Source: a virus. Taken from it: DNA of 64,000 nt. The translations under genes and the position numbers were made by a program. The notes beneath the pieces were generated by a model, which ran no database searches, had not been told where the DNA came from, and saw nothing but the letters and a program-made list of their open reading frames with translations. Within the stretch, counting starts at the first letter, position 1. Each line of letters starts with the position of its first letter. The stretch is taken from positions 40,159 through 104,158 of the IMG/VR virus record IMGVR_UViG_3300002026_000045, one strand, 5' to 3'. This document shows positions 4,097-62,165 of the stretch, piece after piece.

Positions 4097-7043
4097 TCAA
4101 AGCCAATTGAGTGAAAACCATGCAGCATCTTTCTCATTTGTAAATGCTGCATACATTTGGTCTGTCCCGCCTATTTCGTTAAATTCGTCGTTACCGTTAT
4201 TGTTCCATGTTCGATGAATGTCAGTTCTGTAATGCCTAATATCATTATCTTTCATCCATTCGTCTAACGTCGAGTGAAATTTCCGGTAATTTTCATTGAA
4301 CAATGTTCCGATCTTGCTATCATACGGGCATTTAACAATAACAGCATATCCAACATAAAAGTGTTTGATATCATTTGCCCTACGATGTACTCTAGTGTCA
4401 TACGCCCAATTATACTCTTGCTCAGTCTTGAATCCGCGAATTTGCCATTCCTTTTTACCTAACAAGCGAAGTATAATTGACAGCATTATGTAGCCAATGC
4501 TCCCCACATATCCAATTTTTCTTTTGCTGCTTCAGCGCGAGCAAACGCTCTGTTTTTCTCTGCACGGGCAGAATCTAAATCACGATTTAAATGCCTTACT
4601 TGCGAGTCTAATTTCTCAATATGAGATTGTGTGTCAGCCAACAATTGAATTACTGTTCTATTTTCAAGACGTGTAATTTCTTTTTGCATTTCGTCCATTG
4701 TTGCTTCATTTTCAGAAAGTTGCATTTCATTAGCGTCTAATCTTTCTTTAGCAACATCTAAATCGTCACCGAACACTAATCTATATGCCGCAGCATCCGC
4801 GGCCATATCTATTAGCCTTGCCACAATGGGATTAGAGTGTAAGTTGTTTATCCACAAATATTGTATAAATTCAGAATCTGACAATTTGCATTGACTCATT
4901 GACATGTTAGCTTCTCCATCGCAAGGTAGCTAGCGTTGCATCTGCTGGTGATCTAACAAACAAATTAACGTACCTGTGGCTAGTTACTAAGAAAGGAGTT
5001 TTGACTGCCCATTTCTTTTTACGCTTTTGGTTGTGCAGACCTTTTGGAATTGCTGGTCCGATATTGTCAACACACCAAGTGATTACGCGATCACGGCACT
5101 GATTGATAGACTCATCGTTCACTCTTACTTCTATTTTAATCATTAGTTGCAATCATTTTCTGTTAAAATCTAATTCCGTTGGTTCGCATTGCAGCAAATG
5201 TGAGTCAATTGGTGTAGGGTAATCCACTAAGTACACTCTAAGTCTATACCCAGACAACCCAACATGATCAACTGTATAGATATTTCCGTTGTATTGAACT
5301 TGCGTTCCAGGGCGAAATATTTGCATATACATTAGCGGGATCTTTCTGTCAGTGTTCATCTTTTGCGTACAAATAAAATACAGTTAAGTATTTATTGTAT
5401 GCTTCTGCAACAGCAGTGCTGATTTCACGAGCCTTAACATGTTTGTCGTGTTCTTCAACAATGGCTGACAATTGTTGAAGATTTGCGAGCGGCAACTCTG
5501 CTGACACAGTTGACGGCTCAGTTACAACGGCATGGTAAGAGCTCCCATACCCAGTTAAAACAGGCGTTGACTTAGGGTAAGATATATTTACGGAAATAAA
5601 GTATTTCCTGCAAAACTTGTCCACTGGTGGTTCAACGAGATGACTCATTTAATAATCCTGAAACTCTATTTGCAAAATCAATAACGCCATCCATGTTTTC
5701 AGCAATTGCATCATACCCATGCATGTATGCATTATTGTATGCTTGTTCATAGCAAAGCTTAAACAGATCAGGGCGCAACTCATTATACTCTAACAGCATA
5801 GAGTCAAACCATATAGTTGCGGCTGCCATCGCCAAAGATTCTTGCTCTTGCTTAAATTTTTCTGCTGCTTCTTCTGTAATAGGATCAGCAACTTTTTCAA
5901 ACATTTTAGAATGAAGTATTGCTTCTTCCTCAGACTCAAATCTAGTTGCTTGCCCATCTCTGTAAGCATACCATGAATATGATACAGGTGGGGGCTCAGC
6001 ACACTCGACATAGTTTGCTTTATTGCAAGCTTCTTCCCACGTAATCATTGACCTGCCCTAACTAACGCAAGTAGAATATCAAACTTCTCTTTTGCATCCT
6101 TTAACCCAGGATGATTATTGCAAAGTTCTGTCAGTTTAGCTTCTTCAACCATTTTTTCTTTAACCCACGCAATAGCAGCACGAGTATCAGCATCAAGTTG
6201 AACCATTTGTGATGTGGTGTAATTAGTTGATACCACACCAGTGTGATCAACTATTTTAACTGCGTTAATACTGCCATCCCACACCATTGTTCCAGACAAT
6301 GCCGGCAAGGTTGTATAAGTCGCATGCTCCATTCCTGCCCCAGTGATAATAGTGTTAATCATAGTTTGTTTGATCAATACGAGATGGAGAGAATTCCTGT
6401 TTGTAAAAATCTACAAACTCTTGCATTTCTTTAATAATAGTAACTACATCATTTTTTGTCAAAAATATTCGATTGCTAATCTTATCATCACCATCTACAT
6501 TAGCAAAATCAATATATGGCATATTTGTGCATGCCCATTTGATTCTAAACTCTCTGTCTTTACTTAGCTTAGTCATCATTATGTTCACACACTACTTCAA
6601 CTGTGCCGTCAAAAATGTAACCAACTCCGCGCAGCCATTCTTCAAATCGTGGCAGCAATTCATCCCATGTTTGCTCACCAACAATTGTGTGTTTAATTTC
6701 ACGACCTGGCCCAAAGTTATCTGTTTCGGTGTCAGTCATAATAAATTCGTATTTAATTGTCATTTGTGATCTCCGGTGTATTGCGCAATGCTTCCATAAT
6801 TCTAACTTCTTCCTCGTATTTTTCTTTGAGTGTTCGAACTACAATAAGCGCGTCCCTGGCTACGGTAGCACAAGAATCAGCACGACCATATTCTCCATAA
6901 AGCACAATGTCACCCAACGCATTGATTGCGTGGGCGACAGCTTCTTCAAGTGGGGGGCCTGTATTTTGCTCAGCTTCTTCTTCTGGAGTTTCTTGGTTCA
7001 TTTTCTCCAAGATATCCTTCATTTTATCTAGCATGTCACTCAT
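4097..7043 (-). other. Cluster of about 10 small hypothetical phage genes
   Basis: Tightly abutting minus-strand ORFs (4097-4507, 4486-4905, 4907-5152, 5153-5359, 5349-5648, 5632-6048, 6045-6377, 6355-6588, 6569-6763, 6753-7043). Confidence 0.6.
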
Positions 7044-39922: not shown

Positions 39923-41803
39923 TTAAATTTCGCACCCACCTGCTGCGCATGACAACATTTGGGCACCTTCAACATTGTCGGTTGCTTCTATAAATTCGTC
40001 CCACATAATGTCAGGCATTTGAGCAAGCAATGCATTGTATTTTTCTTCAGTTACTTCTTGATATGGTGCTTGGCGATAGCTGTGATCACTGTGCGGTAAG
40101 AAGGACACACCACCAATGTCATCAAAATTCTTATAAACCCAAGAACCCACTTCTAACCACTCTTTTTCTCTTACATATACAGTAATAGAGGGGTTATGCT
40201 CACACCAGTTCTTTTTGTACACCAAATAGTGCTCTAATTGCTCGATTGCTGTCATATCATTGCGAAAAACAGCAGTTTCTGGCGCTTTTTGTGGGAAAGA
40301 GAACACCCAAGTTGACTCAGGCTTCATTACATCGTCTTCACACGGAACACCTGCGTCTTTAAGAAACTTGCCTAATGGATCCTTTTTATCTTGACGCACA
40401 GTACGAATATAATATTGCGAATAACGTGCATGAATGCCAGATGCTGAGTCAACTAACTGCGACACAGTGCCTGATGGCTTAATTGTTGTAATGGCAACGG
40501 ACTGGTTAATGCCTAATTTCTCTGCCCATTCCTTGTTAGTGTCAATTGCAACTTGGCGTAAAATGTTTAACCAATCTGCAAGTTTAACATTGCCCTCGCG
40601 ACCACTCATTACAACGTGGTCCATAATACCAGTAAGCGACACGCCCAACAATCTTTCTTCTTCGCAATTCTTTTTCCAAATGTTACGGATGTATTTAAAA
40701 TCCACCAATGTAGCTTGGAATGTTCCAAGAATCGTAGCATACTTAACTTTTTCTTTAAGACGCTCTAAAGAATCGCCGTTACGAATAACTACTTCGCTAA
40801 GATTGCAAAATTCATTTGGGCGCAATAAAATCTCGCCACATGGATTAGTGCCAAATTCAATACCTTCAATTTCACGACGTCCAGTAATTTTTGCTTGTTT
40901 ATTTGCTGACACACGATTAAAAATTCCACGCTCACCAGACTTGCTTTCGTATAATGCCAACCATTCCTTCATGAACACGCCAATTTCTGGCTTTTCTGTG
41001 TATGCTACACTGTTGTTAGCAAGAGAACGATGAGCAAAATCTTCCCACCATTGGCCAGTTTTTGCTCCACGCATACGTTCATCTGACAAGTTAGACAACG
41101 AAATTAATGCACTACGACGAACACCGCCAACTACTACAATTTCTCCAATCTTGCACATAATGTCATGGCATTCAAGAGAATTTAGCTTACGGCCCGCTGC
41201 TTTTCTAATAACAGAGATCACAAACATAAACAAGTCGTTAAGTGGGATTGGGCCTGAGCTACGACCACCAAATGTTTTGAGTCTTGCACCAGCAGGGCGC
41301 AATTTAGACAAGTCCCAACGTGGAATTTTACCTTGATACAGCAAAGTAACTAATTCGTGTAATGATGTTGCCCACCCTAACTTGCTGTCTTTAACAAAAA
41401 TTGTTGTGTCAGTTTCGTAAAAATCTTCAGCCACAATTGGTAGTTGGTTTACATATTGGCGTTCCACAGAAAACCCTAGCCCAGTGCCATTCATCAAAAT
41501 GTACAATGCTTCGCTAAACGATTTAAGGTTGTCAATTGCAATATATGAACAATTATATCCAGAGATGTTGTCACGCTCTAACGCTGGTCCAGCAGTCATT
41601 AGTGACCGCATAGATGGCATAACTTCCATGTCTAAGATATTTGAGCGAATACCATTCCCCAACACTGATGCATAATCTGGGAATTTATGACTGTAAAAAT
41701 CTATTAGTCGTTGAACTGTTTCATCCCAGTTTTCTCGTCTTGATTTTTCATCAATAAACCTTGCATAACGTGACTTGTGAATGTATTTGCGATAATTGTC
41801 CAT
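39923..41803 (-). CDS. nrdJ: Class II (adenosylcobalamin-dependent) ribonucleotide reductase
   Basis: PSMR.L, YNC, GGVRRSALISLS, TNPCGEI, CNLSE, TIKPSGTVS, EHNPS, APYQE, C-terminal CAAGGC. Confidence 0.88.
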   Translation of the reverse strand: MDNYRKYIHKSRYARFIDEKSRRENWDETVQRLIDFYSHKFPDYASVLGNGIRSNILDMEVMPSMRSLMTAGPALERDNISGYNCSYIAIDNLKSFSEALYILMNGTGLGFSVERQYVNQLPIVAEDFYETDTTIFVKDSKLGWATSLHELVTLLYQGKIPRWDLSKLRPAGARLKTFGGRSSGPIPLNDLFMFVISVIRKAAGRKLNSLECHDIMCKIGEIVVVGGVRRSALISLSNLSDERMRGAKTGQWWEDFAHRSLANNSVAYTEKPEIGVFMKEWLALYESKSGERGIFNRVSANKQAKITGRREIEGIEFGTNPCGEILLRPNEFCNLSEVVIRNGDSLERLKEKVKYATILGTFQATLVDFKYIRNIWKKNCEEERLLGVSLTGIMDHVVMSGREGNVKLADWLNILRQVAIDTNKEWAEKLGINQSVAITTIKPSGTVSQLVDSASGIHARYSQYYIRTVRQDKKDPLGKFLKDAGVPCEDDVMKPESTWVFSFPQKAPETAVFRNDMTAIEQLEHYLVYKKNWCEHNPSITVYVREKEWLEVGSWVYKNFDDIGGVSFLPHSDHSYRQAPYQEVTEEKYNALLAQMPDIMWDEFIEATDNVEGAQMLSCAAGGCEI

Positions 41804-41894: not shown

Positions 41895-42344
41895 TTAGTA
41901 TTTTCCTAATTGCAGATCGGAATCTGAATATGATTGAATGACTTCTACCTCTGTATCAATCTGTGTTTTACTTATTACCTCGTCAAAGGTGTAATTAAGT
42001 ATATATTTCTCATCGTCGATCGAGACTAAATTGTAATTTTCAAGTCCAGAACTTGCTTTTACTTTTAGAAGTTTAAATTTATGGCTTGCGCCATGTTTTG
42101 ATAAATGAAGGGTATAGAGCATACCTAATGCTTTGGCTACATCATCATAGTTATTGTCAGACAATAATTCCCATGGTGTCGGCCAATCTTTTGGTTCGCT
42201 ATGATCCAAATAATGATTTATAAACGGAGCATAACTCCACAAGTGTACAGTTTTTGCAACTGCTTCGTCAAATGGAAGATCCCCAATCATTTTGCGAAAG
42301 GCCTTCCACTCTTTAAGACGATCGTCAGATCGTAAAGTCCACAT
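41895..42344 (-). CDS. Conserved hypothetical phage protein
   Basis: 149 aa with WPTPWEL. Confidence 0.6.
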   Translation of the reverse strand: MWTLRSDDRLKEWKAFRKMIGDLPFDEAVAKTVHLWSYAPFINHYLDHSEPKDWPTPWELLSDNNYDDVAKALGMLYTLHLSKHGASHKFKLLKVKASSGLENYNLVSIDDEKYILNYTFDEVISKTQIDTEVEVIQSYSDSDLQLGKY

Positions 42345-42394: not shown

Positions 42395-42634
42395 TTACAA
42401 AGTAGGGGTTATGCTATTTGAAACAATTGATTCTGGCCCGTCGCCAGTGGAATTAGTCGCATGAACTGTAAATGTATACGAAGTTCCATTTGTTAATCCA
42501 GTGACTGTAATAGGTGATGCGGGTCCAGTGGCAGTAATTCCCTCAGGGTCACTTGTTACAGTGTAGCTAGTGACTACTGATCCGCCATCACTAAGTGGCG
42601 GATCAAATGAAACTGTAGACTGTTGACTAGCCAT
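42395..42634 (-). CDS. Fibronectin type III protein lacking strand A (putative cap)
   Basis: TVSFDPP.SDGGS.VTSYTV...TGLTNGTSYTFTVHATN. Confidence 0.85.
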   Translation of the reverse strand: MASQQSTVSFDPPLSDGGSVVTSYTVTSDPEGITATGPASPITVTGLTNGTSYTFTVHATNSTGDGPESIVSNSITPTL

Positions 42635-42646
42635 AACTTAGCCTAG

Positions 42647-42937
42647 TTAAACTGCTACTACGTTAGTTGGTGCGCCTGGTACATCAGCAGTCGGAGTTAC
42701 TGCATTAGATGGAGCAGATTCTGCACTGTTTCCAGCTGAGTTAGTTGCGTGGACTGTAAATGTGTATGATACACCGTTTGTTAATCCAGTCACAGTAATA
42801 GGGGATGCAGCGCCAGACATTGTCGTAGATGCAACTGTTGCGTTGCCCTCAAATGCTGATACTGTGTATTCTGTAATAGGGGATCCTCCATCATTCACTG
42901 GTGCGTCAAATGATACTGTTGCTTGTGCGTTTGCCAT
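42647..42937 (-). CDS. Permuted fibronectin type III protein (strands B-G, then A)
   Basis: Starts at AQATVSFDAP and ends VPGAPTNVVAV; own TATAAATA promoter and AAGGA SD. Confidence 0.88.
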   Translation of the reverse strand: MANAQATVSFDAPVNDGGSPITEYTVSAFEGNATVASTTMSGAASPITVTGLTNGVSYTFTVHATNSAGNSAESAPSNAVTPTADVPGAPTNVVAV

Positions 42938-42981
42938 TGTAATTTCCTTAAAATATTTATATAAAAAGTAACTGTTACTTT

Positions 42982-44811
42982 CTATACTGCTAACACGTTA
43001 GTAGGACTGTCAGGACGTCCTACTGAAATTGCCACTACATTCGTAGGGCTGTCTGGTCGGCTTATTGAAATAGCCACTACGTTAGTAGGAACGTCTGGCA
43101 CTGCGATTGGCAGTGCAGTTGGTGCCCTATCACCTACTAAAGTTCTGCTAGTTAATTTTAGCACAGCATGCTTATGTAGTAACGTAGTTTTATATTTTAA
43201 TTCTACCGTATTAGTATTTAGCGTCGGTAGTAAAGTAACCCCAACATCATTAGTTTCTACATAATCATCTGAAAAGATAACTGTTGATCCAATTGTAGAA
43301 ATATGAATAGTGCCATTACGTTGCTCATCACCACGCAGAATTGAGTATTCTAAAATAGTAGGGTAGTCCGCAAAACCAACTACACTAGCTAACGTAGATG
43401 TAGATAAGTTGTCAGACAATTGAATGTCAACTCCACCAACTGAGTACTGTTTACCTAGCATAGTTCTGCCGTCTGACAGAGTTGCAAAACTTGCTCTACC
43501 GTTTAACTTAATCGCCGGAACAGTTGATGCAGCAGATCTGTCAACCATGTCGCCAATGCTATAGCAATTATTTCCACCTAAACTAACAATAGGAGTTACA
43601 TCTACGTTTGTAGATAATCCCTTGCCAACATTTGTAAAAGTGTTAAATGCGCTTACAACGTGAGACACCCCACCATAAAAACTTGCCTCGCCATAGATTG
43701 CTTCAGCTGCAATATTAGAAAATGTTGATCCAGTTACTTTGATTGAAGTTGGGAATGGAGCACCATCATTGCTTTGACCTAAATTTAACCCTCGATACAA
43801 TCTATCAAACGAGCAATTAGCAAACGTAACATTCTCAACTTTGCTGTCAGCATAATATGCGTACACCTTACCAGAAAAATCACATTCTGTAAACACTAAT
43901 CTTTCTGAAGAAACAGCATTGGTTTGTGACGACGCCATGCGAACACAAGTTTGTGGATTTGGACTAGCACCAACTGACGTTGGACTAGCTGTATCAGATC
44001 CGTAAAAACCAACTCGGGTAAACCTTACATCAGTAACAGTGTTAAGATACATGATGTCTTTGTTGTTAATATTAACTAACGACAAATCTTCTATCTCTGC
44101 ATACCCTGGCATTATTGCAGGTGGGCTACCAGAGCCAACTATATTTGAATCTATTGTAGTTGCGTTAACAAAATCGTAAGTAAACCCAGTATGCAACTTT
44201 GAATCACATGAACTGATCAGGCACGGTTGAGTAGAATCAACTTGAATCAAAAATGTCGAGTTTTTGCCATCACCTTTAAGGCGTACATACGGCATCAATC
44301 GTATGAAATCACCAAATATTAAATAAGTACCTGCAGGAATATGTATTGTTCTGCGTGTTCTAGCTTCAGTGCCAAGTAACGATGCTTTATACAGCTCAAT
44401 AATTGCACGGTTAATAGATCGAACTTCAAGAAGTCCATCACCTTCACCATTGCCTGATGTATCATGTAACTTGCTATCCCCTATCCCACCAAAATCACGT
44501 AAATTAGCAAAGTCATCAAACTTATCTTGCATTGACCGTGTAGTAGGAGACAACGTGCTTAGACCAGTCAGTGCAATGTAACCAGCAGCCAGTCCTTTAA
44601 ACGTGTAAACACCACTTAGACTAAAAATATCGCTGTATTGAGTTAAGATTTCAGTATTACCAAGGCTTGGAGCACCTTCTTCCGTAGTACCATTGCCAAT
44701 GTATAACTTTCGAGTATCTATTGCCCAGCCTAATTCAGCACTTGCTAACTGCGGTAGGTCTTCTTGTAGTCCTCTACGGTGTTGTATGCGTGAGATTTGA
44801 ATTATCGCCAA
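42982..44811 (-). CDS. Virion structural protein with beta-helix (pectate-lyase-like) region and three C-terminal FN3 strand-A repeats
   Basis: ISRIQHRRG..LPQLASAELGW; NLRDFGGIGD, IPAGTY, L.GDG; C-terminal P.PTNV.A x3. Confidence 0.75.
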   Translation of the reverse strand: MAIIQISRIQHRRGLQEDLPQLASAELGWAIDTRKLYIGNGTTEEGAPSLGNTEILTQYSDIFSLSGVYTFKGLAAGYIALTGLSTLSPTTRSMQDKFDDFANLRDFGGIGDSKLHDTSGNGEGDGLLEVRSINRAIIELYKASLLGTEARTRRTIHIPAGTYLIFGDFIRLMPYVRLKGDGKNSTFLIQVDSTQPCLISSCDSKLHTGFTYDFVNATTIDSNIVGSGSPPAIMPGYAEIEDLSLVNINNKDIMYLNTVTDVRFTRVGFYGSDTASPTSVGASPNPQTCVRMASSQTNAVSSERLVFTECDFSGKVYAYYADSKVENVTFANCSFDRLYRGLNLGQSNDGAPFPTSIKVTGSTFSNIAAEAIYGEASFYGGVSHVVSAFNTFTNVGKGLSTNVDVTPIVSLGGNNCYSIGDMVDRSAASTVPAIKLNGRASFATLSDGRTMLGKQYSVGGVDIQLSDNLSTSTLASVVGFADYPTILEYSILRGDEQRNGTIHISTIGSTVIFSDDYVETNDVGVTLLPTLNTNTVELKYKTTLLHKHAVLKLTSRTLVGDRAPTALPIAVPDVPTNVVAISISRPDSPTNVVAISVGRPDSPTNVLAV

Positions 44812-54331: not shown

Positions 54332-54420
54332 AAGTTTTCCTTTGTTTTAAAATAAGCTCCTTAAAGAAGCCAGAATAATATTTACCTCACCAAACTGGTT
54401 TAGTTATATTATGTTATCGA

Positions 54421-54449
54421 AAAAGATAGGGCCGAAGCCCTATACTTTT
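54421..54449 (-). terminator. tmRNA terminator (UUCG loop)
   Basis: TAGGGC-TTCG-GCCCTA-TCTTTT. Confidence 0.85.
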
Positions 54450-54850
54450 GATTATGTTGGTTTACAAGGCCTTTTCTGCCCCGCTGGTTTCGCTGTTTAG
54501 GCGAAAGCTGCTTCAGTTGCAGCAACTTTGGAACCGCCGAAACGGAAGCCTTTAGCTACTGTCATCTTCACACCAGATGTTACATTTGCGTTTGCATTTG
54601 CTTTGGTTTTGCTTTTTCGACTAGGTTACCCCAATCCTACGGCTTTCACATTGCCGAGCGATAAAATCCGTACTTAGTGTTTGGGCGATTCCGGATGTGC
54701 CCCATCAAAAACACACTGCCAATTAGTCTTTCGACATTATCTGAAACGACCTGGCATATGACCCCCAGGCTCAATGTGTTGTTGGTGGAGCACAGGAGAT
54801 TCGAACTCCTTTGTCAACCACTGTTCTCTATTTTACTTTACGCTGTTACT
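54450..54850 (-). ncRNA. ssrA: Circularly permuted (two-piece) tmRNA
   Basis: T arm GGAGTTCGAATCTCC plus GTGCTCC-ACCA (ends 54783) precedes the 5' strand GGGGCAC (starts 54703); G3.U70 pair; tag ORF 54595-54497; directly after smpB. Outer ends approximate. Confidence 0.88.
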
Positions 54851-54856
54851 AACTAT

Positions 54857-55282
54857 TTATGCTATCTTTTGGCTCTTCACAATTCTTCTGTTATCTAGGT
54901 CAATATCACGATTCTTTGTTGTCTCGCGTTTATCATATTCCTTTTTGCCTCGGGCAACCCCAATTGACAATTTAAACTTGCCGTTCTTTTGGTAAATACG
55001 TAACGGAACTAAGGTTAACCCTTTCTCTTTCACTTTACCAACTAACCGTGCAATTTCTTTCTTATGCAGCAACAACGTTCGTGACCGTTGCATGTCATTA
55101 TCTGACGACCCAATGTTTGCCCCAACTAATATTACTACATCGTCTTTAATTATACAATGCGATCCTGCGATAGAGCAAGAGTTCTGAGCAATCGCTTTAA
55201 CTTCCCAAGCCTCAAGTTTCATGCCGCTCTCATATTCTTCAATAATTTCATAATCAAAAAATGCTTTTTTATTGGATATCAT
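54857..55282 (-). CDS. smpB: SsrA-binding protein SmpB
   Basis: NKKAFFDY, ESGM.L..WEVKAI, R.R.LLLHKKEI, GLTLVPL, ARGKKEYDKRE. Confidence 0.95.
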   Translation of the reverse strand: MISNKKAFFDYEIIEEYESGMKLEAWEVKAIAQNSCSIAGSHCIIKDDVVILVGANIGSSDNDMQRSRTLLLHKKEIARLVGKVKEKGLTLVPLRIYQKNGKFKLSIGVARGKKEYDKRETTKNRDIDLDNRRIVKSQKIA

Positions 55283-60751: not shown

Positions 60752-62165
60752 TTACCATGTAGTATTAAGTAACGTTCGTGTCCAAATATCAGTTAACCCG
60801 TCAACATACGTTGCAGTACAGACATACAAGTAAGTTGCATCAACAGCTACCATTCCAACGGTGTCACCTTCAGCGCCAATTGCTGATGCAGGTGCTGCTC
60901 TCAACCCTGTTCCTGGAATTCCTTGCGCTCCTTGAACACCTTGTGGTCCCATTGGGCCAATTTCCCCTTGAATTCCTTGCAATCCTTGTGGACCTTGTGG
61001 ACCTGTGTCACCAGTTAAACCTTGCAAGCCTTGTGGACCAGCAACCGTTGATGCTTCTCCCTGTGGTCCTTGTGGGCCTGCTGGGCCAGTGTCACCTTGA
61101 ATACCTTGTGGACCAGCAACCGTTGATGCTTCGCCTTGAGGTCCTTGTGGTCCTGCTGGGCCAATGTCACCTTGAATACCCTGAATCCCTTGTGGTCCAG
61201 CGTCTCCTTGGATCCCCTGTGGTCCCATTGGACCTACTTCACCTTGTGGACCAGCAACTGTTGATGCTTCTCCCTGAGGTCCTTGTGGTCCCATTGGACC
61301 TACTTCACCTTGTGGACCAGCAACTGTTGATGCTTCTCCCTGAGGTCCTGCTGGGCCAGTAAGTCCTTGTGGACCCATTGGACCTACTTCACCTTGAATA
61401 CCTTGAAGCCCCTGTGGACCTGCTGGTCCTTGAAGCCCCTGTGGACCTGCAACTGTTGAATCTGCGCCGGCAGGTCCTGCTGCTCCCTGTGGTCCCGCTG
61501 GACCCATTTCACCTTGGGCTCCACGCAATGCAGTTAACGCACCAGGAATCCATTCTGTCCATACACCTGGGGAAACATATAACCAAATTGTTTGAGTATC
61601 GTTAACAAAGTATGCATCGCCAAGTGTAAATCCACCGCCTGCTGGTAATCCACTAAGTGAAGATATCGTAGCTAGTAAATTAATTCCCTTAACTCCCTGA
61701 GGGCCCATTGGACCTTCTGGACCTTGTGGACCAGCTGGGCCCATTGGACCTTCTGGACCACCAGCTGGACCTTGATCTCCCACTAATCCTTGTGGACCTT
61801 GATCTCCCACTAATCCCTTATCGCCTGGTTCGCCCTTGTCACCCGTTGGTCCCTTGTCACCAACTGGCCCTTGCACCCCAGTTGGACCTTGTACACCTGC
61901 TGGACCTTGAACTCCAGCAATACCTTGCGGCCCTTGCAACCCTACGTCACCAGTAGCACCTTTGTCACCAGTAGCACCTTTGTCACCAGTAGCACCTTTG
62001 TCACCAGTAGCACCTTTGTCACCAAAATCTAATCACTGGACGATTAAGTACCGGTAATGTAGTTGTATTTGAAGGCCCAACGTCTACTCCGTCAAATTGA
62101 TTTGATTGAGCATCTGTCAAGACATCGAATCCGTTAAACCCAGTTGGTTGAAATGCATTTGCCAT
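60752..62165 (-). CDS. Collagen-like fibre protein, split by a frameshift near 62025
   Basis: Long Gly-X-Y repeats and C-terminal G..GD.G..A.D..YLYVC...W.R domain; the SD-led 48 aa N-terminal ORF (62165-62019) is out of frame with the collagen frame (62032-60752). Confidence 0.75.
61947..62024. repeat. Perfect 18-bp tandem repeat x4.3 (encodes GDKGAT)
   Basis: tcaccagtagcacctttg repeated. Confidence 0.9.

Follow-up and report, generated by a model that had tools for sequence, protein, structure and literature searches.

Three consecutive minus-strand genes of an uncultured, T4-like phage appear to encode one fibronectin type III (FN3) module in pieces. They lie in a 64,000-nt stretch of DNA (positions 40,159 to 104,158 of IMG/VR record IMGVR_UViG_3300002026_000045), here called the window, which is part of a 104-kb viral record with an estimated completeness of 55% from a microbial-mat metagenome. 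The three open reading frames encode proteins of 609 aa (42982-44811), 96 aa (42647-42937) and 79 aa (42395-42634), which we call the anchor, the extender and the cap. The module is predicted to be cut genetically in the turn between its first two strands, A and B, and to reassemble non-covalently from the three gene products. Probably, the tail of the anchor supplies the first strands, the extender propagates, and the cap ends what would be a nicked tandem FN3 array reassembling by donor-strand complementation. The donor-strand complementation itself is well supported, as a prediction from sequence and structural models. The features of the locus are as follows.

42982-44811, minus strand: anchor, 609-aa tailspike-like protein; Mtd_N N-terminus, parallel beta-helix and C-terminal beta domain, predicted to be folded to about residue 558.
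42985-43134, minus strand: C-terminal tail of the anchor, residues 560-609, with three orphan copies of strand A (43069-43098, 43027-43056 and 42985-43014).
42938-42981, minus strand: intergenic region of 44 nt, out of frame; putative T4-late-promoter-like TATAAATA at 42954-42961 and ribosome-binding site AAGGA at 42944-42948.
42647-42937, minus strand: extender, 96-aa FN3 protein; begins at strand B, leaving a predicted open groove, and carries the putative donor strand A, VPGAPTNVVAV, at its C-terminus (42650-42682).
42635-42646, minus strand: in-frame spacer of 12 nt, CTA GGC TAA GTT, between the TAA stop of the extender and the ATG of the cap.
42395-42634, minus strand: cap, 79-aa FN3 protein; begins at strand B and has no donor strand.
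41895-42344, minus strand: 149-aa protein with no assigned function, the usual downstream neighbour of the anchor family and outside the FN3 system.

The Cut in the A-B Turn

The sequence-only reading from which this analysis started had proposed a split FN3 trio, and the reading frames bear this out. Orphan copies of strand A stand at the ends of the anchor and the extender, and the extender and cap both start at strand B. The anchor terminates in PDVPTNVVAISISR, PDSPTNVVAISVGR and PDSPTNVLAV. These are three 14-residue units of the form PDxPTNVVAISxxR with the final unit truncated, and the DNA encoding them is a 42-nt tandem repeat of 2.5 copies. The extender ends in VPGAPTNVVAV and the cap in ...SITPTL. 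Both small proteins, which are 62% identical to each other, begin with M-A-N/S-x-Q at strand B and have no signal peptide, lipobox or prosegment.

Both also match the Pfam fn3 profile (PF00041) well above its gathering cut-off of 25 bits. The extender scores 49.7 bits (E 4.4e-13) over profile positions 15-83 of 84, and the cap 47.5 bits (E 2.1e-12) over positions 14-81. Since the matches begin only at position 15 or 14, strand A is absent from both N-termini. An AlphaFold2 (AF2) model of the extender has the canonical FN3 fold, with Z of 10-11 against solved FN3 domains, and its alignment begins at about residue 18 of single-domain entries. No complete seven-strand FN3 domain was found within one chain; the strand A stands at a C-terminus, that of the same chain or of a different one. 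In alignment with conventional tandem FN3 proteins, the cut falls exactly in the A-B turn (...PTNVTAV/AGNAQATVSF, with the slash marking the cut), and VPGAPTNVVAV corresponds to the linker plus the strand A that opens the next domain in those proteins.

The gene boundaries appear to be real. The extender gene has no alternative start upstream: there is an in-frame TAA at 42998-43000 and no start codon between it and the ATG. Both junctions are also covered, with zero differences, by contigs from two further samples of this microbial-mat study, so the stop codons are not assembly errors. The cap gene follows the sequence TAA CTA GGC TAA GTT, in which AGG is the sole ribosome-binding site. The earlier suggestion was that the extender has its own promoter and a strong ribosome-binding site, and the cap a weak one. 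The TATAAATA box, the AAGGA and the AGG are all present. The box is not enriched across the window (8 found versus 5.2 expected). All five of its minus-strand copies lie 5-50 nt upstream of minus-strand frame starts.

The junctions also bear on whether the pieces could be made as one continuous anchor-FN3-FN3 protein by stop-codon read-through, ribosome hopping or frameshifting. The second junction reads GTT TAA CTA GGC TAA GTT ATG; it is in frame, and GTT precedes both the first stop and the ATG. A related locus described below (L003) likewise has an in-frame junction with one TAA. However, the second junction in the window holds two stops, and the first is 44 nt long, out of frame, and occupied by the promoter-like box and a ribosome-binding site. 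The 104-kb record yielded no tRNA gene and hence no suppressor. Other loci have stop/start overlaps of 1-4 nt, and the initiator methionine is kept by every one of the 26 members of the extender family. Recoding fits these data poorly, and we regard it as very improbable.

Conservation of the Layout

A search of 5.8 billion proteins recovered a family of extenders of 87-96 aa that are 61-76% identical to the 96-aa protein. The layout is found in at least 26 clusters, and the family alignment is made of 26. All 26 begin with M-x-x-x-x-A-x-V-S-F, so that the initiator methionine at strand B is invariant, and in all 26 the stop follows directly after APTNVVAx, with A89, P90, T91 and A95 invariant. 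The tail has been kept conserved even though the AF2 monomer model leaves it at low confidence: the last 16 residues have a predicted local distance difference test score (pLDDT) of 52-57, and residues 86-90 fall below 50. Taken together, the alignment and the model argue that the tail has a binding role.

Other searches mark out where such proteins occur. Cultured phages gave no match at the DNA level, and at the protein level only generic FN3 domains in Streptomyces phages. A scan of IMG/VR for the APTNVVAx-stop pattern returned only the contig of locus L089 (see below) and two apparently chance matches. Among the matches listed from a metagenome scan, most are ordinary FN3 proteins, and one further locus, L190, was found there. 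A scan of genome contigs yielded nothing relevant.

Co-Occurrence of the Anchor Tail and the FN3 Genes

The anchor belongs to a family with 1723 matches, and Pfam fn3 is found in none of the best 120 of them. Most anchor homologs end in ...SRTL without a tail, and about nine carry one to four copies of strand A at the extreme C-terminus. Of 79 complete anchor loci in IMG/VR, 78 lack both a tail and an adjoining FN3 gene; the remaining one, L003, has the two together. No FN3 gene accompanies any of a further 27 tail-less anchor loci (two of them on contigs already counted). Thus, among about 105 IMG/VR relatives of the anchor, the strand-A tail is present only in the window and L003, the adjoining FN3 gene is present only there, and a fused FN3 domain is present in none. 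The anchor of L003 is 47% identical to that of the window. It ends in four copies of strand A and a TAA; 15 nt containing AAGGA separate this TAA from the gene of a 77-aa FN3 protein, which again begins at strand B.

The sequence-only reading had proposed a search for the same architecture in other phages, and L003 supplies it in part: the tail and an FN3 protein without strand A are there, but that protein is of the cap type and there is no extender. The 77-aa protein is one counterpart of the cap; the other is the protein P0101, which comes from a contig of exactly the same size as that of an extender, P0007. In the same way, five tail-bearing anchors and extenders come from contigs of exactly equal size (4537, 145207, 25846, 400338 and 9265 bp).

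The 149-aa protein is encoded directly after the anchor gene in about 100 loci by tblastn, tail-less ones included (for example, at 5449-5898 in L003). In the window and L003, the FN3 genes are inserted between the anchor gene and the 149-aa gene. Because they sit between the anchor and its usual neighbour, the tail and the FN3 genes look like a cassette gained as a unit. The 149-aa protein was considered as an FN3-specific chaperone and is ruled out in that role, as it also follows tail-less anchors. It has no Pfam or PHROG match and, being the next gene in nearly all relatives, forms a conserved two-gene module with the tailspike-like gene; it may be an assembly factor for the spike.

These distributions also bear on a non-functional gene fission, in which a formerly continuous multi-FN3 extension of the tailspike has been broken up, the PTNVVAV strings are leftovers, and the small frames are either decaying or folding as self-sufficient six-stranded domains. 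With ordinary tandem FN3 domains the FN3 bodies share about 60% identity and the linker, and two of the three junctions of the window and L003 are in frame, as would be expected from such a history. On the other hand, 26 clusters keep the start, the end and the invariant APT...A of the tail, and no piece lacks an ATG or a ribosome-binding site of its own. Gain of the tail always goes with gain of the FN3 gene, and unrelated protein pairs whose stop and start codons overlap show this cut again (see below). A relative with one continuous multi-FN3 frame, which the earlier reading had named as evidence of recent fragmentation, was found neither among the 120 best homologs nor among the roughly 105 loci. 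Fission fits the data poorly and is, in our judgement, improbable. The division of the module into donors and acceptors of strand A remains the preferred account.

The Anchor as a Tailspike-like Protein

The anchor matches Pfam Mtd_N above the cut-off (E 4.2e-8) and a pectate-lyase-like family below it (E 1.6e-4). Its AF2 model, built with 116 homologs, has a pLDDT of 85.2 and contains the combination typical of a tailspike, a right-handed parallel beta-helix behind an N-terminal virion-attachment domain. Residues 560-609 are modelled as coil, with pLDDT falling from 57 to 38. The best Foldseek matches in the PDB are the phage tailspike depolymerases 6c72, 8oq0 and 6f7k, with E of about 1e-10 and a probability of 1.0, at low TM-scores (0.16-0.34). 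On the strength of the model, these matches and Mtd_N, the anchor is predicted to be a tailspike-like beta-helix protein with a flexible tail of orphan first strands.

Structure Prediction of the Proposed Strand Exchange

Donor-strand complementation joins a protein that lacks an edge strand to a partner with an orphan copy of that strand, and both kinds of protein are found here. We folded three copies of the extender with ESMFold2, using our own alignment of 26 rows. The ipSAE score was 0.74, versus 0.00 for the best of three controls. For reference, this mark is reached by 20 of 30 proteins solved as same-chain pairs, as against 1 of 23 solved as single chains. At least 95% of contacts are common to the three runs, and the partner pLDDT is at least 90. 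In the predicted interface, residues 83-96 of copy 2 lie against residues 6-19 (strand B), 21, 24, 45 and 58-80 (strands F/G) of copy 3. The predicted chain is open, linear and head to tail, since the tail of copy 3 itself is outside the interface. Insertion of strand A in trans, which had been expected of a multimer of the extender, is thus what the model predicts, with the donated strand meeting both strand B and the F/G face of the next copy. The modelling supports the compatibility of the parts with strand exchange, short of binding.

The extender might instead have been a stable monomer that fills its own groove, and this had been put forward earlier as an outcome that would refute the proposal. 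The monomer model contains no confident self-complemented fold. FN3 strands A and G both span the domain from pole to pole, and the linker after strand G is 2-8 residues, the same length as the linkers of tandem arrays. For these two reasons, the linker is probably too short for strand A to reach back into the groove of its own body.

The Same Cut between Other Proteins

The cut in the A-B turn is also found between proteins of other kinds. In L089, a 1518-aa fibre protein starting at strand B comes 3 nt after a 90-aa extender, and in L088 a 90-aa extender is followed by a 105-aa protein. In L144, a 136-aa protein ending in PDAPTGVHAA overlaps an 873-aa protein starting MSNGYATVSF. The pair in L190, again overlapping, consists of a 265-aa protein ending in PGPPTDVVAS and a 1647-aa protein starting MGNQSANITF. 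The records behind L088, L089, L144 and L132, all of them fragments, yielded no anchor homolog.

Some further features of these loci may be recorded. Small proteins starting MAYAS(R/K)S.RARTS and containing a CxxC motif are encoded in L144 (4594-5004), L190 (3642-4439) and L132 (3998-4995); they have a strand A at the end, and each overlaps a large fibre gene beginning at strand B. Two neighbouring proteins of L132 share a different C-terminal motif, FYLE(D/N)G.DFLTLEDG.TLFEQE.GP, possibly a docking peptide of another type. In L088, a 139-kb phage fragment, the cap-type FN3 protein encoded at 5292-5609 has an extra tail of about 25 residues, SSSQSYSSVELILNSVQLAVDINNISLTLG, and stands just upstream of a 1136-aa LamG-like fibre protein. 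That tail may be another docking element.

Proposed Assembly

The arrangement we propose is as follows. The flexible tail of the anchor would offer three copies of strand A. In the extender, an FN3 body whose strand-A groove is empty would lead into an inter-domain linker and a strand A of its own, and the cap would be an FN3 body with the groove alone. A strand A from the anchor or an extender would lie beside strand B of the next body and pack on its F/G face. The result would be an ordinary tandem FN3 array with its backbone nicked once per domain. The extender would add to itself head to tail, and the cap would end the chain. The parts would likely form a short rod, or a string of FN3 beads, at the tailspike's distal end, with a plausible role in weak surface adhesion. 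The central claim of the sequence-only reading, that FN3 is split between A and B and that the orphan strands complete neighbours in trans, is supported by the conserved layout, the co-occurrence of tail and FN3 gene, the absence of a fused form and the predicted three-copy fold.

Beyond this core, we infer that the parts do bind, that a polymer of some length forms, that the extender:cap ratio controls that length, that a late promoter provides the extender in excess, and that the assembly is located on the virion. As had been suggested, each anchor would nucleate up to three chains, and the 79-aa protein would set their length by stoichiometry. The core does not necessarily include a polymer. 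Because L003 combines four donor strands with an FN3 protein of the cap type alone, what is conserved is probably the orphan-strand tail together with an FN3 body lacking strand A.

That distinction matters in weighing a limited docking, in which extender bodies, cap bodies or both would sit as beads on the three strand-A sites of the anchor, the C-terminal strand of the extender would recruit at most one further body, and there would be neither an open-ended filament nor a length set by stoichiometry. The four donors with a lone cap-type gene in L003 are what this would predict, and in L089, L144 and L190 the split makes a one-to-one joint of two proteins. The 14-residue spacing of the donors would presumably fit one body per site. 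However, the groove and donor strand of the extender are nearly identical to those of its partners, and nothing visible blocks self-addition. The three-copy fold is a confident head-to-tail chain, and no other donor for the extender groove was found in the L088 and L089 fragments. We consider limited docking unlikely. The chain started by the anchor, propagated by the extender and ended by the cap is still our preferred reading.

Several points weigh against that reading as well. The three-copy fold rebuilds a canonical FN3 domain, so its pass may partly reflect the model's memory of solved tandem FN3 structures. A run with three copies and our own alignment lies outside the calibration of the tool, and the fold covers the extender-extender contact. 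The pairing of anchor and extender contigs by equal size is indirect. In the available fragments, L088 and L089 show no donor for the extender's own groove. With donor strands 14 residues apart, the bodies and growing chains on one tail could clash. The anchor gene is surrounded by genes for nucleotide metabolism and not by a structural module. Binding, polymer and virion presence all stand at the level of prediction or inference from sequence and models.

The fullest version of the proposal has the 96-aa protein, from a gene of 291 nt, as a chaperone-free, self-polymerising subunit. It would build an open-ended Ig-type fibre on the tailspike, nucleated by the tandem donors, terminated by the cap and set in length by the extender:cap ratio. 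Such a fibre would be a viral counterpart of the donor-strand pili of bacteria and archaea, and part of a wider, modular split-FN3 connector system with which phages recombine the parts of their fibres. We put this forward as a tentative possibility.

Genomic Context

The T4-like genes in the window are rIIA, ribonucleotide reductase with an adjoining glutaredoxin-like gene, and an exonuclease. A 395-aa collagen-like repeat protein (60752-61939, minus strand) has many matches to tail-fibre PHROGs, with E down to 7.5e-67; therefore, a separate fibre gene exists in the phage. The record also contains a permuted transfer-messenger RNA gene with a long tag peptide, called by ARAGORN at 54406-54876 on the minus strand of the window. 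In another anchor locus, L004 (6726-9556), the ribonucleotide reductase gene after the tailspike-like gene is split into two frames. One frame closes with an intein-like N-part (CLTGNTNIE...), and the next opens with an intein-like C-part (...VLVHNC). The sequence suggests that this gene carries a split or disrupted intein.

Relationship to Known Systems

Literature searches on donor-strand or strand-exchange FN3 in phages found no description of such a system. In strand topology, the closest parallel is with the type V pili of Bacteroidota (FimA/Mfa1), which form head-to-tail polymers by protease-mediated strand exchange, have anchor and tip subunits, and use no periplasmic chaperone-usher (PMC13655056). 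There, as predicted here, the C-terminal strand of a neighbour fills the groove left by an absent N-terminal strand. The differences are that in those pili a protease cleaves a lipoprotein precursor to open the groove, whereas here the gene simply starts at strand B; that the fold here is FN3 and not the type V pilin; and that the producer here is a phage and assembly would take place in the cytoplasm.

The chaperone-usher pili (Fim, Pap and Caf1) are likewise built of Ig-like subunits in which a missing strand is completed by the neighbour, and they have adaptor and terminator subunits. Their subunits lack the C-terminal G strand and receive it, by donor-strand complementation and exchange, from an N-terminal extension, whereas the proteins here lack the N-terminal strand A and would receive it from a C-terminus. 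Assembly of those pili further depends on PapD-like chaperones and an usher. No match to either the chaperone (PF00345) or the usher (PF00577) was found in the 104-kb record, which is about 55% complete, while controls matched.

Outside the pili, the muscle proteins myomesin and obscurin-like-1 provide an incomplete Ig-type fold that is completed in trans by a strand from the linker beside an FN3 domain. Their structure (PDB 5fm5) is among the structural neighbours of the extender model. Unlike the present system, this is a eukaryotic pair with a single joint and no polymer.

Among phages, Ig-like domains reportedly were described by Fraser et al. in 2006 as additions to tail proteins, sometimes through a frameshift. 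T4 Hoc and the other decoration domains of Ig-like or FN3 type are complete and belong covalently to a structural protein. The domains described here are of the same class and likely share a role in weak accessory adhesion to surfaces, but they are separate gene products that would be joined by a shared strand. The closest solved phage case is the baseplate of Lactococcus phage Tuc2009. Its BppU protein contributes a C-terminal hairpin to the beta-sandwich of BppA domain 2 and so completes it, making a composite titin-like (Ig-like) domain (PMC4742702). There, as predicted here, a C-terminal extension of one protein completes a domain of another, and the Tuc2009 joint docks an accessory adhesion protein. 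Unlike the arrangement proposed here, it is a single joint made by a two-strand hairpin, with no tandem donors, no self-propagating subunit and no FN3 cut in the A-B turn.

Significance

Should the predicted binding occur, the donor-strand principle of bacterial and archaeal pili would have a phage form as well. Its building block would be the most common Ig-type domain, and the positions of gene starts and stops would encode it directly. In the genomes of uncultured phages, it would account for many of the small orphan FN3 genes and of the tails that end in PTNV, and it would provide an annotation rule, orphan strand to open groove, for pairing the parts of fibres. A self-assembling, cysteine-free FN3 connector of about 90 residues with a 10-residue tag would also be a tool for protein engineering. 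For the phage, the arrangement would allow many adhesion domains to be displayed from little coding sequence and receptor-binding parts to be swapped without gene fusion.

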